A stretch of DNA of 64,000 nucleotides from Acidobacteriota bacterium (GTDB lineage Bacteria > Acidobacteriota > UBA6911): assembly GCA_012729555.1 (NCBI GenBank), contig JAAYCX010000020.1, forward strand, positions 14,908 through 78,907, read 5' to 3'. Below the pieces are notes generated by a model. That model searched no databases. It had not been told where the DNA came from and saw only the letters and a program-made list of their open reading frames with translations. Made by a program: the position numbers and the translations under genes. This document shows, piece by piece, positions 1 to 59,639 of this stretch (position 1 is its first letter; every line of letters begins with the position of its first letter).

Positions 1-783
1 GTCGCCATGACGCTGCTCAACCTCGCCAAGCGGACCGGCATCCCCGTCTTCCTCATCGGCCACGTCACCAAGGACGGCGCCATCGCGGGACCGAAGGCGC
101 TCGAGCACATCGTCGACGTCGTCCTCTATTTCGAGGGGGAGGGACGGCGCAACCACCGCATCGTCCGGGCGGTGAAGAACCGCTTCGGGGCGGCCAACGA
201 GGTCGGCATCTTCGAGATGACCTCCCGCGGCCTGGTCCCGGCCGCCAACCCCTCCGGCCTCTTTCTCCCCGACCGGGAGCTTTCGGCCGGCAGCTCGGTC
301 ATCTGCGCGATGGAGGGGACGCGGCCGCTCCTGGTCGAAATCCAGGCGCTGGTGGTCGCCACCCAGTACAGCACGGCGCGCCGCGTCGCCGACGGCGTCA
401 ACTACAACCGGATCTCGGTCCTGGTGGCGATGCTCGAAAAGCGGCTGGGAGTGCAGATGACGGGGAGCGACATCTACGTCAACACCGCCGGGGGGCTCGA
501 GGTGGACGAGCCCGCGGCCGACCTCGGCCTCTTCGCCGCCATCCTCGGCAGCCTGCGCAACCGCCCGCTGACCCCCGGGACCGTGCTCGTGGGGGAACTG
601 AGCCTGTCGGGCGACGTGCGCCCCGTCCCCCAGGCCCCCCTGAGGGTGCGCGAGGCGGCGGCCATGGGTTTCTCCCGCGTCCTCCTCCCCGCGGGGAACC
701 TCCCCCTCGTCGACCCCGTCGGCGGCATCGGGCTCGTGCCGATCGGGACGGTGGCGGAGCTCGCCGAGCTGATCTTCCCCTGA
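1..783 (+). CDS. radA: DNA repair protein RadA/Sms, C-terminal portion (5' end lies outside window)
   Basis: ORF 7..783 is open to the window edge; translation carries the RadA KNRFG motif (VKNRFGAANEVGIFEMT) and the Lon-protease-like C-terminal domain (GELSLSGDVRPV). Confidence 0.85.
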   Translation, partial: VAMTLLNLAKRTGIPVFLIGHVTKDGAIAGPKALEHIVDVVLYFEGEGRRNHRIVRAVKNRFGAANEVGIFEMTSRGLVPAANPSGLFLPDRELSAGSSVICAMEGTRPLLVEIQALVVATQYSTARRVADGVNYNRISVLVAMLEKRLGVQMTGSDIYVNTAGGLEVDEPAADLGLFAAILGSLRNRPLTPGTVLVGELSLSGDVRPVPQAPLRVREAAAMGFSRVLLPAGNLPLVDPVGGIGLVPIGTVAELAELIFP

Positions 784-917
784 CGCCGGTCCAGGAATAT
801 AAGGTGACTGCGCCGCCGATTCCTGCTAGATTGTATGCATGTCAGCCGTAATCCATTTCTGGCTTTACTTTCTTTTTTCCATTGATAGCGTTCGGTTTAT
901 ACCAAAGGAGTCCCTCG

Positions 918-2006
918 ATGGATCTCTGGATCATCCGGGTTTTTCTCTTCGCCGCCATCCTGATAAGCGGTTTCTACGTGCGCCCCTTCGGGCCCAATCT
1001 TTACCTGACCTTCGTCTTCGGCATTGTTTTCGGGCTCGTCATTCTCTTTGTTGAGTACCGCATCCGCGCGCTCTCCCTGAAAACCCTGCTGGGGGGGGCG
1101 GTCGGTTCGCTTCTGGGCATCATCGGCGCGAGCCTCGTCAGCCTCGTCGTCGGGCGGATGAACTTCGTCCACCCCCAGACCGAAACCTTCGTGCAGATCC
1201 TCATCCTCATCCTGATGACCTACATCGGGATGCTCTCGGGGGCCGGCAAGGGGGAATTCCTCGACCTCACCTCGCTCGGGGGGATCTTCACCGACAGCGC
1301 CCTGCGCAAGTCGTGCAAGATCCTCGACACCAGCGTCATCATCGACGGCCGCATCGCCGACATCTGCAAGACCGGTTTTCTGGAGGGGACGCTGGTCGCC
1401 CCCCATTTCGTGCTGCGCGAGCTGCAGCAGATCGCCGACAGCGCCGACAGCGCCAAGCGCAACCGCGGCCGGCGCGGGCTGGACGTGCTCGAGAAGATCA
1501 AGTCCGCCCCCGGGGTGTCGGTGCAGATCGTCGAAAAGGACTTCCCCGAGGTCAAGGAAGTGGACCTCAAGCTGATCGAACTGGCCAAGGACATGGGAGC
1601 CAAGATCGTCACCAACGACTTCAACCTCAACAAGGTGTCGCAGCTGAGGGGGGTCGACGTCCTGAACATCAACGAGCTGGCCAACGCGCTCAAGCCCGTC
1701 GTCCTCCCCGGCGAGACGATGAAGGTGTTCATCCTGAAGGAGGGGAAGGAGTACAACCAGGGGGTGGCCTACCTCGACGACGGGACGATGGTGGTGGTCG
1801 ACAACGCCCGCCGCATGATCGGCAAGACCATCGCCACCCAGGTCACCTCGGTGCTGCAGACGACGGCGGGGAAGATGATCTTCGGGCGCTTCCCCGAGGA
1901 GGCGGAACCGGGCTCCCGGCAGGAGCGCCGTTCCTATGACCGCGGCGGGACGGTCGCGCGCTTCAGCAACGGCGAAGACGAGAAAGAACGCCTGAAGGAA
2001 CGGTAG
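918..2006 (+). CDS. yacL: YacL-like membrane protein with PIN and TRAM domains
   Basis: ATG at 918 preceded by AAAGGAG (905-911); N-terminal hydrophobic helices, PIN-like region (ILDTSVIIDGRIADI...KIVTNDFNLNKV) and C-terminal TRAM-like beta region; position immediately after radA as in Bacillus radA-disA-yacL. Confidence 0.7.
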   Translation: MDLWIIRVFLFAAILISGFYVRPFGPNLYLTFVFGIVFGLVILFVEYRIRALSLKTLLGGAVGSLLGIIGASLVSLVVGRMNFVHPQTETFVQILILILMTYIGMLSGAGKGEFLDLTSLGGIFTDSALRKSCKILDTSVIIDGRIADICKTGFLEGTLVAPHFVLRELQQIADSADSAKRNRGRRGLDVLEKIKSAPGVSVQIVEKDFPEVKEVDLKLIELAKDMGAKIVTNDFNLNKVSQLRGVDVLNINELANALKPVVLPGETMKVFILKEGKEYNQGVAYLDDGTMVVVDNARRMIGKTIATQVTSVLQTTAGKMIFGRFPEEAEPGSRQERRSYDRGGTVARFSNGEDEKERLKER

Positions 2007-7255: not shown

Positions 7256-8121
7256 AAGGCGGGGGGGGGGAAACATCGAAGGTGGTGCTCGGCTGCGTCG
7301 GCGCCGCCCTGGCCGCGGCGCTGCTGGTCGGCCCGGTGCAGGACTTCATCGACGCGCGCTCCCCGGCCGGGGAGGAGCCCGACCTCCTCTTCTTCAACTC
7401 CCCCGGCCTGGTCCAGAAGATGGCCCTCGGCTTCGAGCCCCTGCTGGCCGACCTCTACTGGATGCGCACCATCCAGTACTACGGGCGGCGCGACGACGAG
7501 GGGCGGCGGCGGGAGAGCTTCGGAAACCTCTACACCCTCCTCGACATCACCACCACCCTCGACCCGGGACTCCAGGACGCCTACCGCGCCGGGAGCTGCT
7601 TCCTCTCCGAGCCCCCGCCGGTCGGGGCGGGCCGGCCCGACCTGGCCCTCGAGCTCCTCAAGAAGGGGGCGCGGGCGCATCCCCGCGAGTGGCGCCTGGT
7701 CTACGAGCGGGGGTTCGTCCACTACCTCTACCTGAAGGACTACGCCGCCGCGGGGGACACCTGGCTCGAGGCGGGCCGGGTCCCCGGGGCGCCCGAGTGG
7801 CTCGCGGGCCTGGCGGCCATGGCGCTGTCGAAGGGGGGGGCCGAGGAGGTCGCCGTCGCCCTCTGGCGGCGCCAGTACGAGGAGGCGACGAGCGACGCGG
7901 TGCGCGACAACGCCCGCAACCACCTCCACTCGCTCCAGGTCAAGCGGGACCTCGCCGAGCTCAGGGACCGCATCGAGCGCCACCGCGCCGCGACCGGCTC
8001 CTTCCCCCCGAGCCTCCGGACCCCCCGGGACCCGATGGGGACCCCCTACGCCTACGACCCCCGCTCCGGCCGGGTGGAGCTCGACCCGGGGAGCGCCGTC
8101 CGCTTCCTCGACCTCCCCTGA
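7252..8121 (+). CDS. hypothetical membrane-anchored protein, translationally coupled to the ABC-2 permease
   Basis: ATG at 7252 overlaps the permease stop (ATGA); N-terminal hydrophobic anchor (VVLGCVGAALAAALLVG) followed by a helical soluble domain; no recognisable family. Confidence 0.5.
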   Translation: MKGGGGETSKVVLGCVGAALAAALLVGPVQDFIDARSPAGEEPDLLFFNSPGLVQKMALGFEPLLADLYWMRTIQYYGRRDDEGRRRESFGNLYTLLDITTTLDPGLQDAYRAGSCFLSEPPPVGAGRPDLALELLKKGARAHPREWRLVYERGFVHYLYLKDYAAAGDTWLEAGRVPGAPEWLAGLAAMALSKGGAEEVAVALWRRQYEEATSDAVRDNARNHLHSLQVKRDLAELRDRIERHRAATGSFPPSLRTPRDPMGTPYAYDPRSGRVELDPGSAVRFLDLP

Positions 8122-8174
8122 CCCATCATTTTTGTTTATTATCCCGAAATCCTATCCTATAGTCGATGCAGCTT

Positions 8175-8190
8175 CCATTTTCTAAAATGG
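8175..8190. promoter_or_regulatory. perfect 7-bp inverted repeat CCATTTT-CT-AAAATGG upstream of aqpZ
   Basis: Palindrome seen directly in sequence 27 nt upstream of the aqpZ start codon, inside an AT-richer leader. Confidence 0.3.
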
Positions 8191-8216
8191 CTGTATTCCG
8201 ACAAGGAGACTCCGCT

Positions 8217-24355: not shown

Positions 24356-24933
24356 AGGCGGTGTGCGTCTACTGCGGCTCGAGCGCCGGCACCGGCGCAA
24401 AATACCGGGAAGCCGCGCGCACCCTGGGCCGCACGCTGGTCCGGCAAGGCCTCGAGCTGGTCTACGGGGGGGCGCGGGTGGGACTGATGGGGGAGCTGGC
24501 CGACGCCGTGCTCGCTTCGGGAGGAAGGGTCACCGGCGTCATCCCGGAAGCCTTCGCCGCGCGGGTGGCGCACGGGGGCCTCACCGGGCTCGAGATCGTC
24601 GGCGGCATGCACGAACGCAAGCAGAGGATGTTCGACCTCTCCGACGCCTTCATCGCCCTCCCCGGCGGGTTCGGGACCCTGGAGGAGCTGACGGAACTCC
24701 TGACGTGGGGGCAGCTCGACTTTCACCGGAAACCGTGCGGCCTTCTCAATGTTTCGGGCTTCTACGACCCGCTGCTGGCCTTTCTGGATCACGCCGTGCG
24801 GGAGGGCTTCATCAAGGCGGCGCACCGCCGGATGCTTTTCGCCTCGGAGGACTCCGAAGCCCTGCTCGAGCATTTCGGTTGCTACGACGCCCCGAAGACC
24901 GATAAGTGGTATAATCGGCCGATCGATTCCTGA
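24352..24933 (+). CDS. LOG-family cytokinin riboside 5'-monophosphate phosphoribohydrolase
   Basis: Motifs VCVYCGSS, GGxGxMG-like (GGARVGLMG) and PGGFGTLEEL; ATGA overlap with pepP. Confidence 0.85.
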   Translation: MKAVCVYCGSSAGTGAKYREAARTLGRTLVRQGLELVYGGARVGLMGELADAVLASGGRVTGVIPEAFAARVAHGGLTGLEIVGGMHERKQRMFDLSDAFIALPGGFGTLEELTELLTWGQLDFHRKPCGLLNVSGFYDPLLAFLDHAVREGFIKAAHRRMLFASEDSEALLEHFGCYDAPKTDKWYNRPIDS

Positions 24934-24937
24934 AGGC

Positions 24938-26230
24938 ATGATCCGAAACAGCGGATTTTCAAGAATAACCATAGAGGGGAAAGTGATTACGCTTATTGAG
25001 GCCCTGAATTTCCGTTCCCTCAGGTACGTGCGCCAGAGCCTTGGCGGATTTCACGTCCTGATCGGACCCAATGCCAGCGGAAAGACCACTTTCCTGGATG
25101 TTCCCGCCTTCCTCGGCCGGCTCGTATCCGACGGCCTGGAATCGGCCGTCGGCGAGCGCACGGCGAATTTCCAGGATCTTGTATGGCGCCGTGAGGGGCA
25201 GAGATTCGAACTCGCCATCGAGGCGGCGATACCGGCAAAACTCCGGAAGACGGGGGGCAACGGGGATTTCGATACCATTCGCTACGAAGTCGCCGTCGGG
25301 GCCCATCCGCAAACGGAGGAGTTGTCGATACTGGCGGAAAGCGTTCTGCTCAGGAATGCCCCGGTCGCCGAACCTCCCCAGAGAGACTTTTTTCCTTTCC
25401 TGCGGACGCCCCCCAATACGATCCTGTCGCCGAAATCCTCCCGGGGCTCAAAAACCGTTATCCGGAAGGTAGCTAAAGGCAACGACAACTTTTACGACGA
25501 AACGGGGAAAGGCTGGGATCATTCCTTCAAACTTGGCCCGATGAAGAGCGCCCTGGGCAACCTCCCGGAAGACGAATCCAGATTCCCGGTTTCAAGCTGG
25601 CTCAAGGGGTTCCTGATCAACGGTCTGCAACAGATCATCCTCAACAGCCTGCTCATCCGGCGGGCCAGCCCGCCCGGACAAATCCGGGGATTCCGGCCGG
25701 ATGGCTCCAACCTCCCCTGGGTGATTTCCGAGCTCGAAAAAAAGGGTTCCCCTGTCCTGGGGGAATGGATCGCCCACCTGCGGACGGCCCTGCCCGATCT
25801 CGAGGGCATCCGTACCGTCGAGAGGGCGGATGACCGGCACCGTTACATGATGTTGAGGTACCGGGACGGGCTGGAAGTCCCTTCATGGATGGCGTCCGAC
25901 GGGACGCTCCGGCTGCTGGCATTGACACTGCCCGCGTATCTTCCGGAATTCAGGGGCGCCTACCTGATCGAGGAGCCGGAAAACGGCATCCATCCGCGCG
26001 CCGTGGAGACCCTGTTCCAGTCGCTCTCCTCCGTCTACGACGCCCAGATTCTGGTGGCCACCCACTCCCCCGTGATTTTGAGCATCGTCCGGCCGGAGGA
26101 TGTGCTCTGCTTCGCCAAAACAGAAGAGGGGGCCACCGATATCGTGCGCGGCAGCGAGCATCCGGCCCTCGCGGAATGGCGGGGGGAGACCAACCTGGGC
26201 GTCATCTTCGCCGCCGGAGTTCTGGGATGA
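24938..26230 (+). CDS. cytosolic ABC-type ATPase of the AAA_21 / OLD-like family
   Basis: Walker A GPNASGKTTFLD, signature-like SDGTLRLLALTL, Walker B AYLIEEPENGIHP, H-loop VATHSP; no TM segments. Alternative start GTG 24983 is preceded by GAGGGGA; lower GC than the flanks. Confidence 0.8.
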   Translation: MIRNSGFSRITIEGKVITLIEALNFRSLRYVRQSLGGFHVLIGPNASGKTTFLDVPAFLGRLVSDGLESAVGERTANFQDLVWRREGQRFELAIEAAIPAKLRKTGGNGDFDTIRYEVAVGAHPQTEELSILAESVLLRNAPVAEPPQRDFFPFLRTPPNTILSPKSSRGSKTVIRKVAKGNDNFYDETGKGWDHSFKLGPMKSALGNLPEDESRFPVSSWLKGFLINGLQQIILNSLLIRRASPPGQIRGFRPDGSNLPWVISELEKKGSPVLGEWIAHLRTALPDLEGIRTVERADDRHRYMMLRYRDGLEVPSWMASDGTLRLLALTLPAYLPEFRGAYLIEEPENGIHPRAVETLFQSLSSVYDAQILVATHSPVILSIVRPEDVLCFAKTEEGATDIVRGSEHPALAEWRGETNLGVIFAAGVLG

Positions 26231-49420: not shown

Positions 49421-51241
49421 ATGAAGCCGCTGGAACTGCTCGCCCCCGCCGGGACCCCCGAGATCGGCATCGCCGCCATCGACCACGGCGCCGACGCCGT
49501 CTATATCGGCGCCCCGCGCTTCGGCGCCCGCGCCGCGGCCGGGGCCGACCTCGCGGGGATCGAGCGCCTGGTGCGGCACGCCCATTTCTTCCGCGCCCGG
49601 GTCTACGTGGCGCTCAACACCATCCTCACCGACGGGGAACTCCCCGAAGCCCTGGGGCTCTGCCGGGAGATCCACGCGCTCGGGGCGGACGGGCTGATCC
49701 TCCAGGACGTCGGCCTGCTCGAGCTCGACCTCCCCCCCATCCCCCTGATCGCCAGCACCCAGATGCACAACCACACGCCGGAGCGGATCGCGTTTCTCGA
49801 GAAGGTCGGGTTCCGCCGCGTCATCCTGGCGCGCGAGCTGGCGCTCGAGGAGATCGCGGCCATCCGCCGCGCCACGGGCGTCGAGCTCGAGTCCTTCGTC
49901 CACGGCGCCCTCTGCGTCAGTTACAGCGGCCGGTGCTACATGAGCCAGGCGGTGGCCGCCCGCAGCGGCAACCGCGGGGTCTGCGCCCAGCCCTGCCGCG
50001 GCCGCTACACCCTGCTCGACGGCCGCGGGCGCGTGATCGAGTCCGACCGCCACCTCCTCTCCCTCAGGGACCTCTGCCTGATCGAGGACCTCCCCGCCCT
50101 GGTCGGGGCGGGGGTCGCCTCCTTCAAGATCGAGGGGCGCTACAAGGAGATCGAGTACGTCAAGAACGTCACCGCCGCCTACAGCCGCGCGCTCGACGCC
50201 TTCATCGCCCGCACGGAGGGCTACCGCCGCGCCTCCTCCGGCCGGTGCGACCTCCGCTTCACCCCCGACCCGCGGAAAACGTTCAACCGCGGCTACACCC
50301 GCTTTTTCCTCCATGGCGGCGGGCCGAAGGTCGCCTCGCTCGACACGCAGAAATCGATCGGGGAGCCGGTCGGCGCCGTCACGCGCCTGGGCGACGGCTG
50401 GTTCGAGACCGACGGGGCGCGCCTGCAGAACGGGGACGGCCTCTGCTTTTTCACCCGCGCCCGCACCCTCGCCGGCTTCCGGGTGGAGCGGGTGGAGGGG
50501 GAGCGCGTCTACCCCTCCGCCATGGAGGGGGTGCGCCCGGGCGCCCGCCTCTTCCGCAACCTCGACATCGCCTTCAACCGGCTCCTCAGGAAGAGCTCCG
50601 GGCGGCGCCGGATCGGGGTGGAGATGGATTTCGCGCATGACGGCGACGCCGTCCGCCTCGCCGTCCGGGACGAGGACGGGCACGAGGCCGCGGCGGAGGC
50701 CCCCCTCCCCTTCGAACCCCCGCTCGACCCGGAGAAATCGCTCGAGCAGGTGCGGACGCGGCTCGCGGCCACCGGCAACACCCCCTTCGTCGCCACGGAG
50801 ATCCGCGTCCCCGGCCCGGTCGGCTTCTACCCCCTGAGCTTCCTCAACCGGCTCAAGCGCGACGCGCTCGAGGCGCTCGGGCGGGTCCGGGCCGAAACGT
50901 ACCCCCGCGCGGAGGCGCCGCTCGTCCCCAACGACGCCCCCTTCCCCGAGCCGCGCCTCGACTACCACTCGAACGTCCTCAACCGCCACGCGCGCCGCTT
51001 CTACGAGCGCCACGGCGCCGAGGTGGTCGAGGGCGCTTTCGAGACGCTGGCCGACCCGGTGGGGCGGGCGGTGATGACGTCGCGCTACTGCCTCCGCCGC
51101 GAGCTCGACGCCTGCCCCCGCTGCGGCGGCGCGCGCCTCCTCGATGAGCCGCTCCGGATCAGGGACAGCGGCCACACCTACCTTCTGCGCTTCGACTGCG
51201 ACGCCTGCCGGATGTCGGTCATCCTGGAAAGCAAAAAATAG
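49421..51241 (+). CDS. U32-family peptidase (collagenase-like; RlhA/YhbU-type)
   Basis: U32 motifs (ELLAPAG, IESFVHGALCVSYSGRCYMS) plus a C-terminal extension. Confidence 0.8.
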   Translation: MKPLELLAPAGTPEIGIAAIDHGADAVYIGAPRFGARAAAGADLAGIERLVRHAHFFRARVYVALNTILTDGELPEALGLCREIHALGADGLILQDVGLLELDLPPIPLIASTQMHNHTPERIAFLEKVGFRRVILARELALEEIAAIRRATGVELESFVHGALCVSYSGRCYMSQAVAARSGNRGVCAQPCRGRYTLLDGRGRVIESDRHLLSLRDLCLIEDLPALVGAGVASFKIEGRYKEIEYVKNVTAAYSRALDAFIARTEGYRRASSGRCDLRFTPDPRKTFNRGYTRFFLHGGGPKVASLDTQKSIGEPVGAVTRLGDGWFETDGARLQNGDGLCFFTRARTLAGFRVERVEGERVYPSAMEGVRPGARLFRNLDIAFNRLLRKSSGRRRIGVEMDFAHDGDAVRLAVRDEDGHEAAAEAPLPFEPPLDPEKSLEQVRTRLAATGNTPFVATEIRVPGPVGFYPLSFLNRLKRDALEALGRVRAETYPRAEAPLVPNDAPFPEPRLDYHSNVLNRHARRFYERHGAEVVEGAFETLADPVGRAVMTSRYCLRRELDACPRCGGARLLDEPLRIRDSGHTYLLRFDCDACRMSVILESKK

Positions 51242-51268
51242 AGGGCATCCGCATTCCGACGCCGGGAA

Positions 51269-52810
51269 TCAGGGAGTCTTCTTCTGCGCCTTCGCCGCCT
51301 CCATCATGCGGGTGAGCGGCCCGATATCGAAGCGGGTGCGGCTGTGCATCCCGCCGTCCCTCATGTCGACCTCCACCGTCATCTTCCCCGACAGCGGGGG
51401 GAGCGCCCCGGCGCCGGCACCCGGGGGCGCCAGCGTCCGGATCCCGGCGAAAAGCGCGCCGAGGTCGATCTCCATCAGGGAGGTGGGGCCCGCGGCGGGC
51501 ACGGGCGCCAAGGCGGCCGTGCGCGCCGCCAGGTCGGCGATCCCGGCGTCGCTCGAGGCGAAGAGGAGGAGGTCGCCCGAGGCCGCCATCCTCATCTCGA
51601 GAGGGACCTTTTCGAGCGGGTTGTCCCCCGCCCCGGTCCCGGGGAGCGCCCCGGGGTTCATCCGCAGCCCCACGACCCGCAGCCCGGCCACGGTGCTATC
51701 GGCCGTCCGCTCGTAAAGCGCTCCCGCCGGCGCCTGATCCTCTGCCGCGGCCAGCGCCGCCACCCGCCCGGCGTAGCGGTCCAGGAAGGGGAGATAGGTT
51801 TTGTCGATATACGCGTCGCCGTCGACCCCCGGGCGCAGGACGTAGATCCCCCTCATCGCGATCCCCTCCCGGTCGATCCGCATCCCGCCGGACATTTCGC
51901 CGGTGAACGCTTCGGCCAGCGCCGAGAGTTCCCCCGGATCGAAGCCGAGCCGGCGGTAGAGGCGCCCGTAAACCAGCTCGGCCAGTTCCATCATCCCCGA
52001 CATCTCCGGGGCGCGCGAGCGGAAGCGCAGCGGCATGTCGGCGGCCACCTCGCCCAACCGCATCTCCCCGCCGGGGTCGACGAAGAGGCGCCCGAGCGCC
52101 GTGTCCCGGCCCGCCTCGACGTCCAGGACCAGCGACAGGGCCTCCCCCTCCACCTCCATCCCCAGGCGCAGCGTCTCCGCCTGCCCGAGGAGGCCCAGCA
52201 TGTCGCCCATCATGGCCCGGATCTCCTCGGGGGGGATCGCGGCGGCCCCGGGCGCCCGAGGAGCCGGCTCCGCTTCCCCGATCTTCGCGAGCGCCGCGTC
52301 GAGCTGGGGCTTCATCCGGGCCGCCATGAGGGCGGCGGGAATCTCGAGCACCAGGTTGGCCGGCGGCCGGACGGCCGAGGCCCGCACGAGCGCCTGCTCG
52401 AGGGCCGGGTCCACGGCCTGGGGCGCCCCCGGCCTGGGCGGGAAGGAGAGAAGGTAGTACCCTTCCCGCGCGGCGGCGCCGAAGGCCGCCTGGAACTGCG
52501 GGTTGGGGGCGGCGTACGGGACCAGCGCCACCAGCGCGGGGCTCGGCCCCCCTTCGAGCACCCCGGCCACCACCGGGCGCGCGGGGTCGAGCCACCCGGT
52601 CCCCCCGACGAGGGCGCGCAGCATCCCCACCTGGGCCCGGACGGGCGAATCGGCCGGGGTCAGGGCCTCCACGTCCCGGATCAGCCGCTCCACGTCCCCG
52701 ATTTTGACGAGGAGCGGGGGCTCCGCGGCCCCGGCCGCGGGGAGGAAGACTCCTGCGGCCAGGGTGAAAAGCAGGCAAAGGACGGCGCACCGGCATCTCT
52801 GGTCAGGCAT
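51269..52810 (-). CDS. hypothetical exported Ala/Gly/Pro-rich protein
   Basis: Signal peptide AVLCLLFTLAAGVFLPAAGAA; no recognisable domain; AT-rich promoter region at 52811-52910. Confidence 0.5.
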   Translation of the reverse strand: MPDQRCRCAVLCLLFTLAAGVFLPAAGAAEPPLLVKIGDVERLIRDVEALTPADSPVRAQVGMLRALVGGTGWLDPARPVVAGVLEGGPSPALVALVPYAAPNPQFQAAFGAAAREGYYLLSFPPRPGAPQAVDPALEQALVRASAVRPPANLVLEIPAALMAARMKPQLDAALAKIGEAEPAPRAPGAAAIPPEEIRAMMGDMLGLLGQAETLRLGMEVEGEALSLVLDVEAGRDTALGRLFVDPGGEMRLGEVAADMPLRFRSRAPEMSGMMELAELVYGRLYRRLGFDPGELSALAEAFTGEMSGGMRIDREGIAMRGIYVLRPGVDGDAYIDKTYLPFLDRYAGRVAALAAAEDQAPAGALYERTADSTVAGLRVVGLRMNPGALPGTGAGDNPLEKVPLEMRMAASGDLLLFASSDAGIADLAARTAALAPVPAAGPTSLMEIDLGALFAGIRTLAPPGAGAGALPPLSGKMTVEVDMRDGGMHSRTRFDIGPLTRMMEAAKAQKKTP

Positions 52811-52910
52811 GGCTCCTCCCGAAGGAATATGACAAGTCTTATATCATATTTCCATGATTCCAAAAACCGCGCGCTTAACAAGAGCCGTTGGGTTGAGCGG
52901 ACCTTTTGGC

Positions 52911-53813
52911 CTAAAATTTCGCGATTTCAATCTTACGCATTTGCATCATGTTGGCGAACGCGTGCGGTTTGTTCATCAGTTCTTCCATGTTCGCCGGGAC
53001 CACCTGCCAGCTGACACCGAATCTGTCTTTGCTCCAGCCGCACTGCTCCGCCCCCGGTACCGCCGAGAGTTTTTCCCAGAAGTAATCGATCTCGGCCTGA
53101 TCCTGACACGCGATCGACAGGGAAATCGCTTCGTTGAAGTTGAAGTCATGCTCGACCCCGCTGTCCATCGCCGCGAACCATTGGCCTGCCAACGTGAAGT
53201 CGGCGAACATCAGCGACCCTGACCTGGCCGGACCGGTATCGTCCGCATAACGGGCGAGCGTGCCCAACCTGGCGTCTTCGAATACGGACAGATAATGATG
53301 GATCGCTTCCTCTGCGCGGTTGTTGTTTTCGCCTGAGAACATCAGCGACGGTATGACGAAGGGACGCGGCTCGCCGGCGGGGTCGGTCAAAATCAGCTGC
53401 CACGTCAGCCCGTAGCGGTCCTTGACCCAGCCATAGCGTTTGCTGAAGGGATAGGCCCCCAACGGCATGAGGGCCTCGCCGCCGTCGATGAGTCTGTTCC
53501 ACAGCTCCTCGAGGTGCTCGCCCGCCCGCCCGTCACGCGACGGGTCGAAATTCAGCATGAACGAAATCGATGGGTTGAATGCAAACTCCGGCCCGGCGTT
53601 GATGGCCACAAACCGAAACCCCCCGACTTCGAAGTCGACGGTCAGCACCTTGCCGGCCAGCCCGAGCTGAAACGCCGCCAACCCCTCCTCGGCGCTTTTC
53701 GGGTAATAAATAGTGGAACCCACCTTGCCCTCCGGAAACGCCGACGCGTAAAAACCGGCCGCTTCCTGGGCATTGCCATCGAACCACAAATTCGGAGTGA
53801 TTTTCTGTTGCAT
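52911..53813 (-). CDS. tandem-domain VOC/PhnB-like (3-demethylubiquinone-9 3-methyltransferase-domain) protein
   Basis: Two PhnB-like halves (ITPNLWFDGNAQEAAGFY... and FTLAGQWFAAMDSG...); ATG 53813 preceded by AAGGAGG; lower GC. Confidence 0.6.
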   Translation of the reverse strand: MQQKITPNLWFDGNAQEAAGFYASAFPEGKVGSTIYYPKSAEEGLAAFQLGLAGKVLTVDFEVGGFRFVAINAGPEFAFNPSISFMLNFDPSRDGRAGEHLEELWNRLIDGGEALMPLGAYPFSKRYGWVKDRYGLTWQLILTDPAGEPRPFVIPSLMFSGENNNRAEEAIHHYLSVFEDARLGTLARYADDTGPARSGSLMFADFTLAGQWFAAMDSGVEHDFNFNEAISLSIACQDQAEIDYFWEKLSAVPGAEQCGWSKDRFGVSWQVVPANMEELMNKPHAFANMMQMRKIEIAKF

Positions 53814-53870
53814 GACGCCCTCCTCCTTCATGCTCCTGTCACTCCATGATACCAGATGCGGGATCAGCTC

Positions 53871-53899
53871 TTTGCCCTGGTCCGTCCCCGTTTTTTTAT
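53871..53899. repeat. copy A of 28/29-nt repeat TTTGCCCTGGTCCGTCCCCGTTTTTT(T)AT
   Basis: Identical core to copy B at 55612..55639; overlaps the hipA stop codon (53896-53898). Confidence 0.65.
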
Positions 53900-55149
53900 C
53901 CTGATGCGGCCTTCAGATCTTCATGTTCGAACGCGGACGACATGCGGTCGATCTCAGCCGGTGTAAGGCCGAGCTTCCTCGCCTCCCGACGCCATGAGGA
54001 AACCGCCCGCCCCACCTGCTTCGCGATCGCATGGGCTTCGTCCTCGCATAGTTCGAAATAGCCGGAGACCTGGAGCGCCAGCTTCAGTGACGCGGTGCCG
54101 TCGTAGAGATCGATAGCGGTGGTCAGAATGCGCCGTTTAATGTCGGTGGGCACGGGATTGAGGTCGTATGCCGGCGACAGCCGCCAACCGGAGGAACCGG
54201 CCCATAGAAAGCCGTGGTTGCGCAGATGGTCGTCCGTATTCGAAATCAGGACGTTGAACACAATCCTCCGCCAGAGCGCGTGCATGTCTTCCTTCGGTTC
54301 CGCGCCATGCTGACGGAGAACATCGACGAATTCCAGGTAACTCCGCGCCTCGTTGTCTTTGGCGTCGAGCATGCTCATCGCGGATAAAAACGGCAGGCGC
54401 GTTTCCTGCTCCCGGTCGAAACGGCGCAGTAAAAGAACGGGCCTGTCGGCCACGGTTTCAAGACGCCAGGTCGGAACCGGGATGCCTGCCTTCGCGGCCA
54501 GCGTCAGGGCCACAGCCTCCCACAGGACCGTATTCACCTCGTCTCCCTTGTCCGGAAACTTGGCAATGGCGAGATGGCCGTCGCGGTCCCGGACCGAGGC
54601 TTTGGGCCGGGCGCCGCCGAGCGATGAGCCGGGCGCGAGGAGCAGCCGCAAATCCTCATCACTGTCCGTGTCGCTCGAAACATGCTCCGCCGCGGATAGA
54701 AGTCGCGGCAGCTCCCATAGTGGCGGAATCCTCCTCTGTCCCTGCCCGGCCAGAAACGGCCCCCCTTCCCGGTCGGCGAAACGCAATGCTCCCTGGCGCG
54801 CTTCATCGTCCACCATGAGGAGATAGTCGATTTCCCCGAGGGTGCGCGGCGTCTCTCCCTGAAGCTCGGCGCGCCTTCGCTCGGCGCGTCGCATCAGGAC
54901 GCGTCCCCATCGATCAGGGGCGGAGTCGCCGATGGATCCGAAAAGCGCTTTATCGGATGGTGTGTGAAACGGTCCCGGCCCGAGGGTCAGGGCAGGCTCG
55001 AGGGAAAAGCGATCGGAATGAGTGAGCCAGCTCTTGTCGTATTCAAAGGTGGCGCTCTCCCTGTCCTTGCGCATGCGCGCCCACAGGCGCCCCACCAGGT
55101 GAGGAATGCCTTGCAGGTCCACGAAGACCAGCACTTCTCTGTCCATCAA
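53896..55149 (-). CDS. hipA: HipA-family type II toxin (Ser/Thr kinase)
   Basis: HipA N-terminal domain and C-terminal catalytic motif ISNTDDHLRNHGFLW...SPAYDLNP. Confidence 0.85.
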   Translation of the reverse strand: MMDREVLVFVDLQGIPHLVGRLWARMRKDRESATFEYDKSWLTHSDRFSLEPALTLGPGPFHTPSDKALFGSIGDSAPDRWGRVLMRRAERRRAELQGETPRTLGEIDYLLMVDDEARQGALRFADREGGPFLAGQGQRRIPPLWELPRLLSAAEHVSSDTDSDEDLRLLLAPGSSLGGARPKASVRDRDGHLAIAKFPDKGDEVNTVLWEAVALTLAAKAGIPVPTWRLETVADRPVLLLRRFDREQETRLPFLSAMSMLDAKDNEARSYLEFVDVLRQHGAEPKEDMHALWRRIVFNVLISNTDDHLRNHGFLWAGSSGWRLSPAYDLNPVPTDIKRRILTTAIDLYDGTASLKLALQVSGYFELCEDEAHAIAKQVGRAVSSWRREARKLGLTPAEIDRMSSAFEHEDLKAASG

Positions 55150-55514
55150 CGGATACCCCCGTCTTTTGGCTTGCCGGGATTCCGCCGACGCGAAGGCCGG
55201 ATGCGCAGAGGGAGACGCTCCTCTTCAAGTTCCCGTCCGACGGCATCGTGCCGGGGGTCGGCGACATCGGCAAGCCGGTCGACCATTCCCAGGGCGAAAA
55301 GAACGGTGGCCCAGGTGCCCAGCGAGACGCCGGGATCCCCCTTCTCCACTTTGTTCAGGGTCGTGCGGCTGATGGACGCACGCTCCGCCATGACCGCGAC
55401 GGGGATGCGGCGCCGCCGCCGGGCGTCACGGACATCGTGCCCCAGCTTGCGGAGGGCACGCCTCACCGGTATCGGTGCCCCCGAAAATGATCGCCTGTCG
55501 CCTTTATCGTCCAT
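55146..55514 (-). CDS. hipB: HipB-like XRE-family HTH antitoxin
   Basis: HTH_XRE segment (MAERASISRTTLNKVEKGDPGVSLGTWATVLFALG); overlaps the hipA start by 4 nt. Confidence 0.75.
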   Translation of the reverse strand: MDDKGDRRSFSGAPIPVRRALRKLGHDVRDARRRRRIPVAVMAERASISRTTLNKVEKGDPGVSLGTWATVLFALGMVDRLADVADPRHDAVGRELEEERLPLRIRPSRRRNPGKPKDGGIR

Positions 55515-55515
55515 T

Positions 55516-55551
55516 ATAATAGTCCTTAATAAATAGAAGGTACACTATTAT
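55516..55551. promoter_or_regulatory. inverted repeat ATAATAGT-N20-ACTATTAT in hipBA leader (candidate HipB operator)
   Basis: Arms at 55516-55523 and 55544-55551, immediately upstream of the hipB start on the minus strand; a TTGACA-like box lies further upstream on that strand. Confidence 0.3.
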
Positions 55552-55611
55552 GGACGTTCTGTCAATGGAGGCGCGACCGCACCGGAAGAAGATCCTCTGT
55601 TTTTTCAGTTA

Positions 55612-55639
55612 TTTGCCCTGGTCCGTCCCCGTTTTTTAT
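55612..55639. repeat. copy B of the 28-nt repeat TTTGCCCTGGTCCGTCCCCGTTTTTTAT
   Basis: Overlaps the stop codon (55636-55638) of the cytochrome gene; identical core to copy A. Confidence 0.65.
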
Positions 55640-56766
55640 TGGAGGGCGCCGAAGAAAACGATCTTTTCGCCGGCCAGGAGGGCGTCGCGCTCCTTCTCCC
55701 ACTCGAAGTCGCGCGTCCCCTCCGGCAGGGGGCGGACGCGGACGGCGATGATCGAAAAAGAGCTCCGGCCGCCGTTATGGTCGTACTCCTCGTTGAAGGC
55801 GTACTCGGGGGCCACGCTCTTTTGACATTCGGCGCCGGCGTTTTTCGGCAGGTCGGGGGGCGAGGGGACGAACTGGGGAACGACCAGGCGCAGCGGGCCG
55901 GTGCCGACGATGCGGCCGCTCGCGGGGTCCAGGTGCGCCGGCTCGATCTTCCGGCCGTTCTCCTCGAAGGCGAGCATGACCTTCATCGAAGGGAGCGCCC
56001 GGCCGGGGTCGAGGCCCGCAGCGTTGTAATTGACCCAGCCGCAGGCGCCCAGCGCTTTCTTGTCGAGCCCCGGCACCGGCCTGGCCTGCGCCCACTCGCG
56101 CCGGAGCTCCTCGAGGGTGAACGTCCCCTCGAACCCGTCGACCGAGATGAAATCGACGCTCTCCGCCCCGGGCGCGAGCCCGATCGCCTCGAGGAGCGCG
56201 TACACGGAGTTGCCCCGGTACTGGTTGTAGAAGTCCCCCTGGCGGTTGTGGGAGGTGTTGAGAAACACGGTGTGGCCGACGACGGGGGAGAGGGCGCGGA
56301 GTTCCCGCCCGGAGTAGACCCGGTGGGGGGCGAGGGCGGCCCCGGGGCGGCTCGAAGCCTCCCCCGGGAGGGTGCCGGCCAGCAGTTCCGCCTCGTTCGA
56401 GACGCCGTCGCCGTCGGCGTCCCCCCCGGCGATCTTCCGCAGGGCGGCGACGCCGCGGCCGGCGGCCAGGTACTCGGCGCCGAACCGGGTGAGGGTGGCC
56501 ACGGCCGGACGGCCCCCCCGGACGTGGACCGCGTGGCAATAGCCGCAGTGGTTCTCGACCCGGCTCCCGGAGCCTTCCTCGACCCGCCCGCTCCGGTGGC
56601 AGGGGGCGCACGAATCGGACGCGCCCCCCTTGAGCTGCGGGTAGGCCGCCAGCACCGCTTCGACGTCGCGGTCGTCCGCATGCCCCTTGTAGGCCGCGTA
56701 GCCCGTAACCAACAACAGCCCGAGTCCCAGTGAAGCGGCCGCCAGCCACCGGTGGTTATGCGCCAT
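55636..56766 (-). CDS. membrane-anchored di-heme c-type cytochrome fused to a sulfite-oxidase-like (Mo-oxidoreductase-type) domain
   Basis: Two CxxCH motifs (CAPCH, CGYCH); C-terminal region has a PLRLVVP-type motif as in Mo-cofactor oxidoreductase domains; start taken at ATG 56766 (MAHNHRWLAAASLGLGLLLV). Confidence 0.55.
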   Translation of the reverse strand: MAHNHRWLAAASLGLGLLLVTGYAAYKGHADDRDVEAVLAAYPQLKGGASDSCAPCHRSGRVEEGSGSRVENHCGYCHAVHVRGGRPAVATLTRFGAEYLAAGRGVAALRKIAGGDADGDGVSNEAELLAGTLPGEASSRPGAALAPHRVYSGRELRALSPVVGHTVFLNTSHNRQGDFYNQYRGNSVYALLEAIGLAPGAESVDFISVDGFEGTFTLEELRREWAQARPVPGLDKKALGACGWVNYNAAGLDPGRALPSMKVMLAFEENGRKIEPAHLDPASGRIVGTGPLRLVVPQFVPSPPDLPKNAGAECQKSVAPEYAFNEEYDHNGGRSSFSIIAVRVRPLPEGTRDFEWEKERDALLAGEKIVFFGALQ

Positions 56767-56942
56767 GGCTCTCCATCCCTGTTCGTTTGAATTTGTCATC
56801 CGGAACGCTCCCTGCTCTTTTTGACGGATATTCACGTCCGCCGGAAGTGTACCACGAAGGGGCGGTTTCCCCTGTGCCCACAAATGGGGTATAATAAGAC
56901 TGGTTGTTAGACTAGTTGATACTTTGCGGGAGGGAAGCGGCC

Positions 56943-57188
56943 GTGAAGACCATAGGGGCTTTTGACGCCAAAACGAACCTCAGCCGGCTGCTGAGGGAGG
57001 TGGAAGTCGACCGGGAGGTGTTTGTCATCGAACGCAACCGGAGGAAGGTGGCTACCCTGGTTCCCTACCGCGAAGGGAACCGGGCGGCATCGGAATCGAT
57101 CGTGGAGCGTTTTCGCCGGCTCCGCGCCCGCGGCGGAAGCGACGCCACCCCGGTCAAAGAGCTCATTTCGGAAGGGAGAAAGCGATGA
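56943..57188 (+). CDS. Phd/YefM-family antitoxin (VapB-like)
   Basis: 81 aa from GTG 56943 (VKTIGAFDAKTNLSRLLREVEVDREVFVIERNRRKVATLVP...), a typical Phd N-terminus; TTG 56916 is an alternative start; 4-nt overlap with vapC. Confidence 0.65.
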   Translation: MKTIGAFDAKTNLSRLLREVEVDREVFVIERNRRKVATLVPYREGNRAASESIVERFRRLRARGGSDATPVKELISEGRKR

Positions 57189-57607
57189 GGGAGGAGACGG
57201 TGGTGGTGGACTGCTCCATCTCCGCTTCGTGGTACCTCAGGGACGAAGCCTCCCCCCGCGCTGAAAACGTTCTGGCGCGCATTGCCGATGGGACCTTTCA
57301 TGCCCTCGTCCCCTCGCTCTGGTGGTACGAAAACGTCAACGTCATCAAATCGGCGCAGCGCCGCGGGAGACTGCGCCCCCGGGATGCCGCCACCGCGCTC
57401 TTTCTCCTCCGGGAGTTGCCGCTGGAAACCTGGGATCCCGACAAGCAGGGGATCGCGGGGCTGCTCCAGTTCACGCTCGCGCATAATCTTTCCGCCTACG
57501 ACGCCGCTTATCTCCACCTGGCCGTTTCCACCGGGGCCACGCTGTTCACCGCGGATTCGGACCTTCTGGCCCTGAGCGATCGGTACCCCTGCATTTCCGG
57601 AAGGTAA
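57185..57607 (+). CDS. vapC: PIN-domain ribonuclease toxin VapC
   Basis: PIN acidic residues (VVVDCS...; ...FTADSDL) and 140-aa length; ATGA overlap with the antitoxin. Confidence 0.8.
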   Translation: MREETVVVDCSISASWYLRDEASPRAENVLARIADGTFHALVPSLWWYENVNVIKSAQRRGRLRPRDAATALFLLRELPLETWDPDKQGIAGLLQFTLAHNLSAYDAAYLHLAVSTGATLFTADSDLLALSDRYPCISGR

Positions 57608-57790
57608 ACCTCTTATTCTCAGTGCCTTACTTCGGTTCGGCGTATTGATGTAGACCCTTTCCGTCTTCATTGCTGACAACCATGCAGGTGATCCGAATCT
57701 CTTCACCCGTTCTTTTGATGAACCCTTTGCTTTCGAGAAAGGAAACCTCCTGCTCGTATTTTTCCCGGCTCCACTGGTTGCTATTCATAT

Positions 57791-58054
57791 ATGAAGCACA
57801 GCCGGAAAACGGATATCGGCGCCGAGTTGCTTCGTCACTTGAGTGAAAAACAGGTGCCCGGCACCGTTTATTCCTATCGGCCCGCCGATTTGCTCTACTA
57901 TGCAGATAGCGGCGGGAGAAAGACGGGCATGAGTGCAAGGTTCGGCGCGGGACTACGCAATTTTCGGGAGACCTACCAAAGGCTGGTGAACAGCTGGATT
58001 TGGATTGATAATGCCGGGGCGGAACCCATCATTATCGAAGCGGGAGACAACTGA
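57791..58054 (+). CDS. hypothetical 87-aa protein (first of overlapping small ORF pair)
   Basis: ATG 57791 in roughly 50% GC DNA; stop TGA overlaps the next ATG (TGATG); no family recognised. Confidence 0.4.
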   Translation: MKHSRKTDIGAELLRHLSEKQVPGTVYSYRPADLLYYADSGGRKTGMSARFGAGLRNFRETYQRLVNSWIWIDNAGAEPIIIEAGDN

Positions 58055-58281
58055 TGGCCAGCAGGATTATCGGTTCGAAGGATCCGGATATCCTTTCCTC
58101 CATAAAAGCGCTGCGTCGGGCGGCACGTCGGGCGCTTCAGATCGGTCTGGAGACAGGTACCCCGGTCTACGTGATGAAGCGGGGCAAAATCGTCGATCTC
58201 ACCCTGAGTTACCGCGGTAAAGCCAAGGGCAAATCCAAAACCGGGGATCGTGCAGCCGTCGTTGCTCGAGCCAAAAAATAG
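58054..58281 (+). CDS. hypothetical 75-aa basic protein (second of overlapping small ORF pair)
   Basis: ATG 58054 with GGGAGA 9 nt upstream; Lys/Arg-rich C-terminus; no family recognised. Confidence 0.4.
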   Translation: MASRIIGSKDPDILSSIKALRRAARRALQIGLETGTPVYVMKRGKIVDLTLSYRGKAKGKSKTGDRAAVVARAKK

Positions 58282-58337
58282 GCGCCCGCCGCTGTTCGAA
58301 CTGCCCCCTGCCCCCCTTGACTACCATATCTTCATGA

Positions 58338-59639
58338 TTACTCTGGTCCATCCCCGTTTATCAGGGAGGCGAGGCCTTCGGGCTCCTCGATGCGGACGGT
58401 GACGAGGCGGTTGGGGGGGAGCGGGTCGGGGACGCGGGCGGCGAGGTAGTTGCCGGTGAGGACGCGGGTGCCGTCCGGGCCCGCCGCGAGGGTGACGGCC
58501 GGCAGGGTGCGCCCCGTGAAGCGGCGGCGGAAGGCCGCGCTCTTGGCGCGGCCGATGGCGAGCACGCGCTCGAGCCGGCGGGCGAGCGCGCGCGGCGGGA
58601 CCCGGCCGGGGAGCGCGAACGCCTCCGTCCCCTCCCGGGGGGAGAAGGGGAAGACGTGCAGGTAGGCCAGGGGCAGCTCTTCGAGCAGCGCGCAGCCGGC
58701 GGCGAAATCGTCCTCCGTTTCCCCGGGGAAGCCGACGATGACGTCGGTGCCGACGGCGGCGTCGGGGAGCGAGCGCACGATCTCCCCGACGAGCTCCCGG
58801 TACCGGGCCGCGCCGTAGGGGCGGTGCATGAGGCGGAGGATCCGGTCGCACCCGCTCTGGAGCGGAATGTGAAAGTGGTGCGCGATGACGGGGCTCGACG
58901 CGGCGAGCCGGAGGATGCCGGGATCGAAGTCCATCGGTTCGATGCTGCTGAGGCGCACGCGGCCGATGCCGGGGATCCGGACGACCCGTTCGAGCAGCTC
59001 CGCGAGGCCCGGGTGACCCTCCTGCTTGCGGCCGTAGGCGCCCAGGTGCACCCCGGTGAGCACGATCTCACGGAACCCCGCCGCCGTGAGCGCACTGATT
59101 TCGGCCAGCACCGCTTCGGGGGGCGCGCTGCGGCCGGGGCCGCGCACCTTGGGGACGATGCAGTAGGCGCACCCGGAGTCGCACCCGTCCTGGATCTTCA
59201 CCAGGGGGCGGGTCTTCCCCCCGGTCCGCCCCATCGGGGGGAGGGGGCAGTCCGCGGCCGCGTCGACGGGGGACCACGAGACGCGGGCCGGCCCGGAGGC
59301 CGCGGTTTCCTTCAGCAGTTCGGGAAGGCGCGCGCGTTCGGCGTTTCCCACCACGAGGCGGACGCCGGGGAGGGCGGCGACCCCTTCGGGGTCGCGCTGG
59401 GCGTAGCAGCCCAGGACGACGATGCGGGCCCCGGGGTTGCCGCGGTGCAGGCGGCGCACGACCTGGCGCACCTCGCGGTCGGAGCGGTGGGTGACGGTGC
59501 AGCTGTTGACCACGATCAGGTCGGCGGCGCGCCAGTCGCCGCTTTCGTCCATGGGGAGCGCGGCGAGGGTCGCCCGGATGCCGGCGCTGTCGGCCTGGTT
59601 GGCGCGGCAGCCGAAGGTCCGGATGTGAAAGCTAGGCAT
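58338..59639 (-). CDS. MiaB/RimO-family radical SAM methylthiotransferase (MtaB-like)
   Basis: MTTase N-domain (IRTFGCRANQADS), radical SAM CDSGCAYC, and a TRAM-like C-terminus. Confidence 0.8.
   Translation of the reverse strand: MPSFHIRTFGCRANQADSAGIRATLAALPMDESGDWRAADLIVVNSCTVTHRSDREVRQVVRRLHRGNPGARIVVLGCYAQRDPEGVAALPGVRLVVGNAERARLPELLKETAASGPARVSWSPVDAAADCPLPPMGRTGGKTRPLVKIQDGCDSGCAYCIVPKVRGPGRSAPPEAVLAEISALTAAGFREIVLTGVHLGAYGRKQEGHPGLAELLERVVRIPGIGRVRLSSIEPMDFDPGILRLAASSPVIAHHFHIPLQSGCDRILRLMHRPYGAARYRELVGEIVRSLPDAAVGTDVIVGFPGETEDDFAAGCALLEELPLAYLHVFPFSPREGTEAFALPGRVPPRALARRLERVLAIGRAKSAAFRRRFTGRTLPAVTLAAGPDGTRVLTGNYLAARVPDPLPPNRLVTVRIEEPEGLASLINGDGPE
58343..58361. repeat. diverged copy C of the island repeat core (CTGGTCCATCCCCGTTTAT) inside the mtaB-like 3' end
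   Basis: Matches CTGGTCC.TCCCCGTTT.AT of copies A and B; here it encodes the C-terminal residues INGDGPE of the methylthiotransferase. Confidence 0.45.

Follow-up and report, generated by a model that had tools for sequence, protein, structure and literature searches.

We analyzed a stretch of 64,000 nucleotides (nt) from an uncultured Acidobacteriota bacterium (contig JAAYCX010000020.1; hereafter, the window) that occurs in digester and bioreactor metagenomes. The DNA between mtaB, which encodes a transfer RNA (tRNA) methylthiotransferase, and a U32 peptidase gene proved to be a gene-turnover hotspot, and it is well supported that this hotspot holds small imported modules, mostly toxin-antitoxin (TA) pairs, which are non-autonomous and partly decayed. 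We further consider it likely, with a probability of roughly 0.7, that the mtaB/U32 site is a chromosomal hotspot of gene gain that grew as small non-autonomous modules were added one after another at an attachment-site (att)-like sequence, a short direct repeat that we found at the coding end of mtaB and at internal module junctions. An original prediction, made from the DNA letters alone, had described positions 52811-58337 as a mosaic, TA-rich island that was decayed or non-autonomous. This description is fair: relatives with 87 and 78% identity in MtaB lack the region, and the region varies in its modules, has no recombinase gene, and contains a decaying zeta-toxin-family gene, which is truncated in this genome and remains whole in a strain with 97% MtaB identity. 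The prediction missed the direct repeat that organizes the island; its island reading was supported.

A variable segment between mtaB and the U32 peptidase gene

Relatives were collected via protein clusters and graded by MtaB identity; the closest one in a scan of genome contigs reached 62%. Based on blastn breakpoints and junction sequences obtained against two relatives with an empty site (L091 and L100), we placed the whole variable segment at ~51267-58296 (~7 kb). Its conserved flanks are mtaB (58338-59639, minus strand; Pfam UPF0004 and Radical_SAM) and, on the right, the U32 peptidase gene (49421-51241, plus strand; Pfam Peptidase_U32 and DUF3656), which is conserved within the genus and shares 89% nt identity with L091. 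On the other side of the segment, the gene order purD-purE-mtaB is held in relatives down to 55% MtaB identity. In L091 to L093 (87% MtaB identity) and in L100 (78%), the spacing from mtaB to the U32 gene is ~135 nt and the site is empty, while in L004 and L005 (55-62%) mtaB is followed directly by acpS.

The relatives with an occupied site differ in their modules. L101 (97% MtaB identity) carries the same island as the window, with an intact 173-amino acid (aa) zeta-family gene. L085 to L087 (92%) contain a zeta remnant, a PIN/Phd pair, the gene for a GEGP motif-containing diheme protein (GEGP gene), an exported-protein gene, and, adjoining the U32 gene, a second PIN/Phd pair, and they lack both hipBA and the PhnB-like gene; the small gene orf75 is largely kept in these strains, yet it is not called as an intact gene. 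L088 to L090 (91%) have orf75, PIN/Phd, the GEGP gene, hipB with a hipA stub, an alpha/beta-hydrolase gene, the exported-protein gene, an orphan Phd gene, and the U32 gene. The modules of different relatives are non-nested. This comparison bears out the proposed island, as neither gene set nor gene order is conserved: the region is missing at 87 and 78% MtaB identity, and the modules differ at 91-92%. The identical island arrangement of the window recurs in at least 24 independent contigs of JGI and ENA metagenome assemblies; therefore, the island is not a misassembly.

The gene next to the U32 gene in the window (51269-52810, minus strand) encodes a 513-aa exported protein of native-like composition, which had no Pfam or NCBIfam match and was not assigned to a family. 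It belongs to the variable region, as it was found in L085, L088, and L101 and is missing from L091 and L100. Because a relative with 87% MtaB identity lacks this gene, it is not a housekeeping gene. Thus, of the two housekeeping genes originally thought to flank the island, mtaB was confirmed, whereas the exported-protein gene is itself variable.

In the 62% relative L004, a 0.8-kb patch of low GC content (0.53; positions 7345-8200) without a recognizable open reading frame (ORF) lies between mtaB and acpS; the position behind mtaB may thus have received insertions for a long time. A second TA-variable site is located ~8 kb beyond the other side of mtaB. There, positions 814-2100 of L088/L089, when compared with L001 to L003, hold an extra Phd/PIN pair and a 138-aa ORF upstream of an RNase III gene, which are not present in window-type contigs.

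A direct repeat at module junctions

The repeat was initially detected as a 33-nt direct repeat after the stop codons of hipA and the GEGP gene, with a weaker copy at the mtaB stop codon. Its copies are 26-50 nt long and share a 26-nt core, AAAAAACGGGGACGGACCAGRGYAAA, which at the mtaB locus is followed by ~25 nt of further similarity. Copy M1 (58320-58364; core AAACGGGGATGGACCAGAGTAA; 33 bits, E = 1e-8) encodes the last residues of MtaB (NGDGPE) and the stop codon. Copies M3 (55587-55639; 54.7 bits, E = 3e-15) and M4 (53850-53898; 44 bits, E = 5e-12) start right at the stop codons of the GEGP gene and hipA, respectively. A partial and diverged copy, M2' (57609-57641; GCCGAACCGAAGTAAGGCACTGAGAATAAGAGG), matches the consensus at 25 of 33 positions and has its 5' half replaced; at the equivalent place, L101, L085, and L088 carry a full M2 copy. 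The three full copies and M2' are all in one orientation (minus strand). The island copies are the sole sites in the 64 kb that match at least 18 of the 26 core positions, and shuffled sequence gave zero such sites.

Relatives carry equivalent copies, one of which ends in CCAGAGTAA like the mtaB end. An empty-site relative retains the mtaB-end copy together with a second copy 44 nt downstream. M1 of the window is a hybrid of these tandem copies, M1 and M1b, which lie 44 nt apart in relatives, and comparison with L085, L088, L091, and L112 suggests that 44 nt were deleted between them in the window and in L101. Relative to L101, the window has a replacement with its start in the M2 core, within which homology resumes, and the insertion/deletion (indel) between L085 and the window begins at the end of the M3 unit. 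Three rearrangement breakpoints (the M1/M1b deletion, the M2 replacement, and the M3 indel) are therefore located in the repeat or at its edge.

In a metagenome scan, the repeat was very rare (5 stretches), and a 22-mer was identical at unrelated loci, next to variable DNA. These other copies were found at L098 823-862 (plus strand) and 1536-1588 (minus strand), L097 2114-2180, L095 85-174, and L099 14146-14306. The inverted pair in L098 brackets a gene for a YdjM-like protein of 161 aa, with the first copy lying after a DUF169-like gene, and at one other locus the repeat follows a multiheme cytochrome gene that is convergent with mntP. At these unrelated loci, closely spaced tandem copies are frequent, and ORF ends run into the repeat in three different reading frames. 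Thus, it is a DNA-level element.

The core lacks dyad symmetry but reads as an almost perfect mirror repeat (AAACGGGGAC / CAGGGCAAA, for example at window positions 55612-55637). Eight repeat contexts folded as single-stranded DNA gave z-scores of -1.3 to +1.9 and no shared hairpin, so that the repeat is neither a structured RNA nor a terminator nor an attC site. Scans for promoters and terminators yielded no prediction at the repeat, and Rfam searches were negative both for the island (E-value mode) and for the whole window (gathering thresholds). No match was found in phages; plasmids contained only chance matches of 19 and 24 nt, and viral contigs a single chance match in an AT-rich coding region. 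Two other candidates in the window were dismissed: an exact 12-mer at position 32380, which lies inside coding sequence and is at chance expectation, and a suspected degenerate copy near 57853-57875, which scored below 18/26 and is not claimed.

Composition and the imported modules

The GC content along the window is 0.70-0.79 in the flanks and 0.49-0.68 in the island, the GEGP gene excepted. At third codon positions (GC3), the native genes mtaB, purE, purD, acpS, and the U32 gene have values of 0.93-0.96, as compared to 0.775 for the PhnB-like gene, 0.73 for hipA and hipB, 0.74 for phd, and 0.80 for vapC, and even less for the pieces of the zeta module (zeta stub, 0.65; orf75, 0.62; orf53, 0.59). 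Two island genes have a native-like GC3, namely the GEGP gene (0.915) and the exported-protein gene (0.93). The lower-GC, mosaic character that had been ascribed to the island is thus visible in nonuniform GC and GC3 profiles (0.59-0.80 for the PhnB-like and TA genes against 0.93-0.96 for native ones). The three stretches pointed out as AT-rich joints (52811-52910, 55515-55635, and 57608-58337) indeed have a low GC content of 0.48, 0.44, and 0.54; however, the last is not a joint but holds gene remnants, that is, a truncated exported-protein gene and a zeta-toxin stub, along with an intact 75-aa partner gene.

Genes were called from the ORF list and from Pfam and NCBIfam scans of the island ORFs, which reproduced every gene named in the original prediction (PhnB/VOC-like, hipBA, the diheme gene, phd/vapC, and mtaB-like). 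The Ser/Thr kinase toxin gene hipA (53896-55149, minus strand; HipA_C PF07804, E = 6e-49; Couple_hipA PF13657, 25.3 bits at a cutoff of 22.5) forms an operon with the upstream Xre antitoxin gene hipB (55146-55514, minus strand; HTH_31, 31 bits; TIGR03070, couple_hipB-like), with which it overlaps by 4 nt. The catalytic loop and the Mg-binding Asp of HipA are conserved, as NTDDHLRNHG and SPAYDL align with HipT(Lp) (8ezr). At its 3' end, the last ~9 codons are replaced at the M4 junction, so that the protein has 417 aa versus 426 in most of its closest homologs. PADLOC run on the island ORFs gave just weak matches to a HipA-like candidate system. In the second pair, a phd/yefM-type antitoxin gene (56916-57188, plus strand; PF02604, 37.2 bits) lies directly upstream of vapC, encoding a PIN-domain toxin (57185-57607, plus strand; PF01850, 38 bits), and the two genes share a 4-nt ATGA overlap at 57185-57188. 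The acidic residues of VapC are conserved, since an alignment to the PIN protein PAE0151 keeps VVDxS, YE, YDAAY, and TxD. Domains, gene order, and overlaps thus agree with the earlier call of two complete TA pairs. Such pairs are typical selfish or stabilizing passengers (toxins of the kinase, RNase, and zeta types, each gene overlapping with that of its partner). The TA genes of the island are predicted to be active, and they may also act in abortive-infection defense.

The TA genes of the island are of foreign origin. An unrelated contig of 52% GC carries hipBA near AbiEi and an IS21 element, with 88% nt identity to window positions 55569-53906. The shared stretch begins at the hipB -35 box and ends 10 nt short of the hipA stop codon, and the hipBA module is thus trimmed very tightly. 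More than 100 cluster representatives have 82-91% aa identity to HipA, including metagenome-assembled genomes named Binataceae, Terriglobales, and Bryobacteraceae, whereas the identity of MtaB drops to 62% beyond the genus. Such a degree of HipA conservation is unusual and far above the level of housekeeping genes, which implies a wide recent horizontal spread of one hipBA lineage. The gene encoding a PhnB-like/VOC-type protein of 306 aa (52911-53831, minus strand) contains two PF06983 (PhnB/3-dmu-9_3-mt) domains in tandem (E = 3.7e-69). It is accessory cargo confined to window-type and L101 strains and is missing from L085 and L088.

A decayed zeta-toxin-family module

A candidate third TA pair had been suspected in two tiny overlapping ORFs. 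It is not a functional pair but a degenerate zeta-toxin-family module. The intact gene orf75 (58054-58281, plus strand) encodes a 75-aa candidate antitoxin and is translationally coupled to the upstream gene through TGATG. It had no match in the Pfam scan, and it shows 51% identity over 41 aa to a 59-aa ORF located downstream of a zeta-toxin-family gene on Synechocystis pSYSG. The upstream gene is a 3' stub of a zeta-toxin-family/AAA_33 gene (57937-58054, plus strand), which comprises the last ~38 codons; its P-loop part is deleted, and the window does not retain the P-loop kinase domain with its Walker A motif. An 87-aa ORF at 57791-58054 was rejected as a real gene and represents a fusion artifact, as homologs were found for residues 47-87 alone and these were always the C-terminal ends of Zeta_toxin/AAA_33 proteins.

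Comparison by blastn with L112 and L101 identified an AT-rich, doubly deleted remnant at 57640-57936, which also includes the former upstream region of the zeta gene. L112 positions 83-494 and 643-1039 are missing from the window, and these two deletions removed the 5' half of a small exported-protein gene and the zeta P-loop region. The 3' half of the former gene persists as orf53, a 53-aa ORF (57627-57788, minus strand). In L101, the intact 173-aa zeta gene matches Zeta_toxin with 40.7 bits and has the Walker A motif GPNGAGKT, and in both L101 and L112 an intact zeta-family gene is followed by orf75. Because the pair is intact in these two relatives and two deletions have hit the window, the third TA locus is a decayed module with a surviving small partner gene. 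The module contains no epsilon-type upstream gene; instead, the conserved small ORF lies downstream. Neither orf53 nor orf75 had plasmid matches.

The GEGP diheme gene

The GEGP gene (55636-56766, minus strand; longest ORF to 56883) was identified by NF041762 with 357.4 bits at a cutoff of 300. Its product is composed of a membrane anchor, two CxxCH motifs (CAPCH and CGYCH), a TSP3-like Asp-rich stretch, and a sulfite-oxidase-like/PruR-like domain. Pfam Oxidored_molyb (PF00174) scored 15.9 bits, which is below its gathering score of 24. We generated an AlphaFold (AF2) model from 34 homologs (pLDDT 86) and compared it by Foldseek with the PDB. The best folds were the PruR pterin-binding protein (7kos, E = 1e-4), YedY, and the nitrate-reductase molybdenum (Mo) domain. 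Since PF00174 stayed below threshold but the fold matched PruR and YedY, the Mo-oxidoreductase resemblance is at the level of the fold only. Thus, of the diheme cytochrome with a Mo-oxidoreductase-like domain that had been proposed, NF041762 confirmed the diheme part, and the second part holds as a likeness in fold that does not reach the PF00174 cutoff. The GEGP protein has 62-67% identity to those of other Acidobacteriota, a divergence like that of MtaB.

Among GEGP homologs elsewhere (L109, L110, and P0364), the genes adjoin those for aldehyde:ferredoxin oxidoreductase, a tungsten (W) enzyme, and for a xanthine-dehydrogenase-type Mo enzyme; in another genome, they adjoin a Peripla_BP_2/FecCD/ABC importer with a TonB receptor, and one homolog is fused to a tungstate-binding protein. 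These contexts hint at a role of the GEGP family in W/Mo or metal handling.

A model of accretion and its alternatives

If the hotspot grew by serial accretion at an att-like site, its modules would have been added one after the other: the zeta-family ATPase gene with its 75-aa partner, phd-vapC with the GEGP gene, hipBA, and the PhnB-like cargo with the exported-protein gene. The repeat would act as the att-like site, at which a recombinase encoded elsewhere would join incoming DNA and occasionally delete DNA between repeat copies. The resulting array would resemble the accretion arrays formed by recombinase-less staphylococcal cassette chromosome (SCC) elements or by cis-mobilizable elements (CIMEs), and subsequent erosion of the island would explain the loss of the zeta toxin P-loop in this genome. 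The repeat as a recombination site, the existence of a trans-acting enzyme, and the recombination step itself are all postulated. A more specific version, which we find conceivable but rather doubtful, is that the core AAAAAACGGGGACGGACCAGRGYAAA is the recognition site of a chromosomally encoded recombinase that stacks minimal promoter-to-stop-codon cassettes at few sites. Cassettes would then be captured at the mtaB 3' end and possibly at the loci adjacent to mntP and to the DUF169-like gene.

Several findings weigh against accretion at an att-like site. As already stated in the original prediction, the island has no mobility gene: Pfam, NCBIfam, and PADLOC scans of all island ORFs revealed no recombinase or transposase domain. 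No recombinase was found in five other structural variants or in the other scanned low-GC patches of the window either; the latter hold an AAA_21 ATPase, a GWxTD-domain protein, RmlD, a PIN-TRAM protein, and CcmF, and no integrase. The repeat is absent from the PhnB/exported-gene and exported-gene/U32 junctions, and it is also missing at the junctions of the extra PIN/Phd pair in L085 and of the hydrolase replacement in L088; therefore, not every event at the hotspot used the repeat. The hipBA homologs in other genomes lack the repeat as well, so the traveling unit there is not repeat-bearing. Most tyrosine-recombinase cores, attC sites, and dif sites have dyad symmetry or a hairpin, while the core of the repeat has neither. 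The model does not explain tandem copies 19-48 nt apart, and the arrangement is fixed over at least 24 contigs of the population, among which no excision variants were seen. Last, the native-like GC3 and vertical-like divergence suggest that the GEGP and exported-protein genes may be relocated native genes rather than imports.

The main rival is a generic hotspot in which the repeat is a small dispersed element (similar to repetitive extragenic palindromic sequences or miniature inverted-repeat transposable elements, or a 3'-end element) that was seeded secondarily after stop codons. The modules would have arrived by homologous or illegitimate recombination with homology in the flanking core, and the repeat would have provided short homology for later deletions. 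This would account for the occurrence of the motif at unrelated loci, in either orientation and as closely spaced tandem copies, for the lack of a recombinase, and for the several junctions and the hipBA copies elsewhere that are devoid of the motif; moreover, hotspots often contain no mobile-element genes, and in these, homologous recombination between the core genes that flank them has been proposed (PMC5635113). However, within the 64 kb the motif is confined to the island, where all copies point the same way and coincide precisely with the ends of modules, and the first copy is part of the coding end of a conserved gene, even at the empty site. The motif also has neither terminal inverted repeats nor a hairpin, and the 5 stretches found in the metagenome scan make it very rare. 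We regard a dispersed repeat as unlikely.

Differential loss of a region ancestral to the genus, with the "empty" relatives having deleted it, appears highly improbable. Although the GC3 of the GEGP (0.915) and exported-protein (0.93) genes is native-like, GEGP diverges from other Acidobacteriota (62-67%) much as MtaB does, and clear deletions are seen (the zeta gene; the hipA stub and orphan Phd in L088), an ancestral origin is at odds with the strongly atypical GC3 of the TA and PhnB-like genes and with the 88% DNA identity between hipBA and its counterpart on the contig of 52% GC. In addition, more distant relatives lack all these genes at the site, and different relatives carry different, non-nested modules. 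We likewise give very little credence to an origin from a formerly autonomous element of a classical type (integron, Tn7-like transposon, integrative and conjugative element (ICE), or prophage) whose mobility genes were deleted. Such an origin would fit the position directly downstream of a conserved gene, which is shared by Tn7-like elements, SCC, and many islands, as well as the TA modules, which are typical cargo of Tn7-like transposons (PMC8649781), and the direct repeated sites, which resemble transposase- or integrase-binding arrays. Yet none of six structural variants contains intI, tnsABC, or any integrase, phage, or conjugation gene, a second end marked by an inverted copy is missing, attC-type hairpins are not formed, and the motif has no match beyond chance in phage, plasmid, and viral collections. 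A Tn7-like origin in particular was rejected: a survey of cargo and attachment sites makes no mention of mtaB, and an inverted end is lacking.

Comparison with known systems

On the att-like reading, the nearest analogs are SCC/pseudo-SCC composite islands and CIME accretion arrays. CIME/ICE arrays are built from cis-mobilizable elements that are flanked by att sites and accumulate in tandem. The island is similar in its non-autonomous segments, its att-type direct repeats at a gene 3' end, and its tandem accumulation, but no parent ICE or integrase was identified here, and the modules are single operons. SCC and pseudo-SCC elements occupy the 3' end of rlmH (orfX) in staphylococci and enterococci, their cassettes are bounded by a repeat that duplicates the 3' end of the gene, and some cassettes without recombinase genes rely on an enzyme supplied in trans. 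As in SCC islands and their enterococcal analog (PMC6222049), modules are stacked in tandem downstream of an RNA-modification gene, here mtaB for rlmH, and the 3'-end sequence of the target is repeated at cassette boundaries. In contrast to SCC, the target is mtaB, no ccr serine recombinase was seen, the cassettes of 0.6-2 kb are far smaller, the right end is repeat-free, and the host belongs to another phylum.

The island shares with integron arrays small, tightly trimmed cassettes, a site after each cassette, and a wealth of TA genes. It differs from them in that it has no intI/attI (its neighbors are purD, purE, and mtaB), its repeat is linear without an attC hairpin, and its cassettes have their own promoters and lie in both orientations. 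The pdif sites are 28-bp dyad-symmetric XerC/XerD sites of alternating orientation and are found mostly on plasmids. The pdif modules of Acinetobacter (PMC6449649, PMC9455709) are alike in being small, often consisting of TA pairs, being bounded by short sites, and being moved by a recombinase encoded elsewhere, whereas the island motif is mirror-symmetric without dyad symmetry and all its island copies are direct.

Chromosomal hotspots of horizontal gene transfer lie between core genes, and many of them have no recognizable mobile-element genes (Oliveira et al. 2017, PMC5635113). The island resembles these hotspots, which often lack mobile-element genes, in its conserved core-gene flanks and its rapid accessory turnover among close relatives, but it has a specific direct repeat at internal junctions that equals the coding end of a flanking gene, a feature for which a generic hotspot has no need. 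Compared with a classical integrase-type island, the atypical composition and the absence from close relatives are present, whereas an integrase gene was not found, and the repeat occurs at the mtaB end and at internal junctions but not at the exported-gene/U32 right edge. As for the modules themselves, HipBA and Phd/VapC correspond to type II TA systems in domain content, gene order, and overlapping stop and start codons, whereas the zeta-family module departs from its family in having a downstream small partner rather than an upstream epsilon-type one and in being truncated here.

Other features of the window

A 493-aa ATPase of the AAA_21/AAA_15 type (AbiEii/OLD-like) is encoded at 24749-26230 (plus strand) in a second stretch of reduced GC content (0.61-0.65; patch at ~24-30 kb), which may be another accessory or defense islet. 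A 374-aa ORF with PIN and TRAM domains is located at 882-2006 (plus strand) in a lower-GC stretch at the start of the window. ARAGORN reported a "tRNA-???" with a four-base anticodon at 487-578 (minus strand); this call is probably spurious, given that no Rfam family reached its gathering threshold anywhere in the window.

Implications

As a TA-rich accessory islet, the locus is of an ordinary, routine kind, with the junction repeat as its one unusual feature. It provides a further case of TA modules that accumulate in hotspots of gene turnover, here in an uncultured and little-studied lineage of Acidobacteriota, and the strains at 87-100% MtaB identity form a clean natural series of gain, replacement, and decay. 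In addition, the data tie the GEGP diheme family to pterin/Mo-binding domains at the level of the fold and to W/Mo enzymes and metal-uptake genes through genomic context. To our knowledge, few mobile elements have been characterized in Acidobacteriota. If the core is indeed recognized by a chromosomally encoded recombinase, it would define an integron-like or SCC-like gene-capture system with a nonpalindromic site and no linked integrase. If the repeat is a recombination site, the mtaB 3' end would be a new attachment site, and its use would reveal a compact cassette-stacking mechanism in Acidobacteriota.

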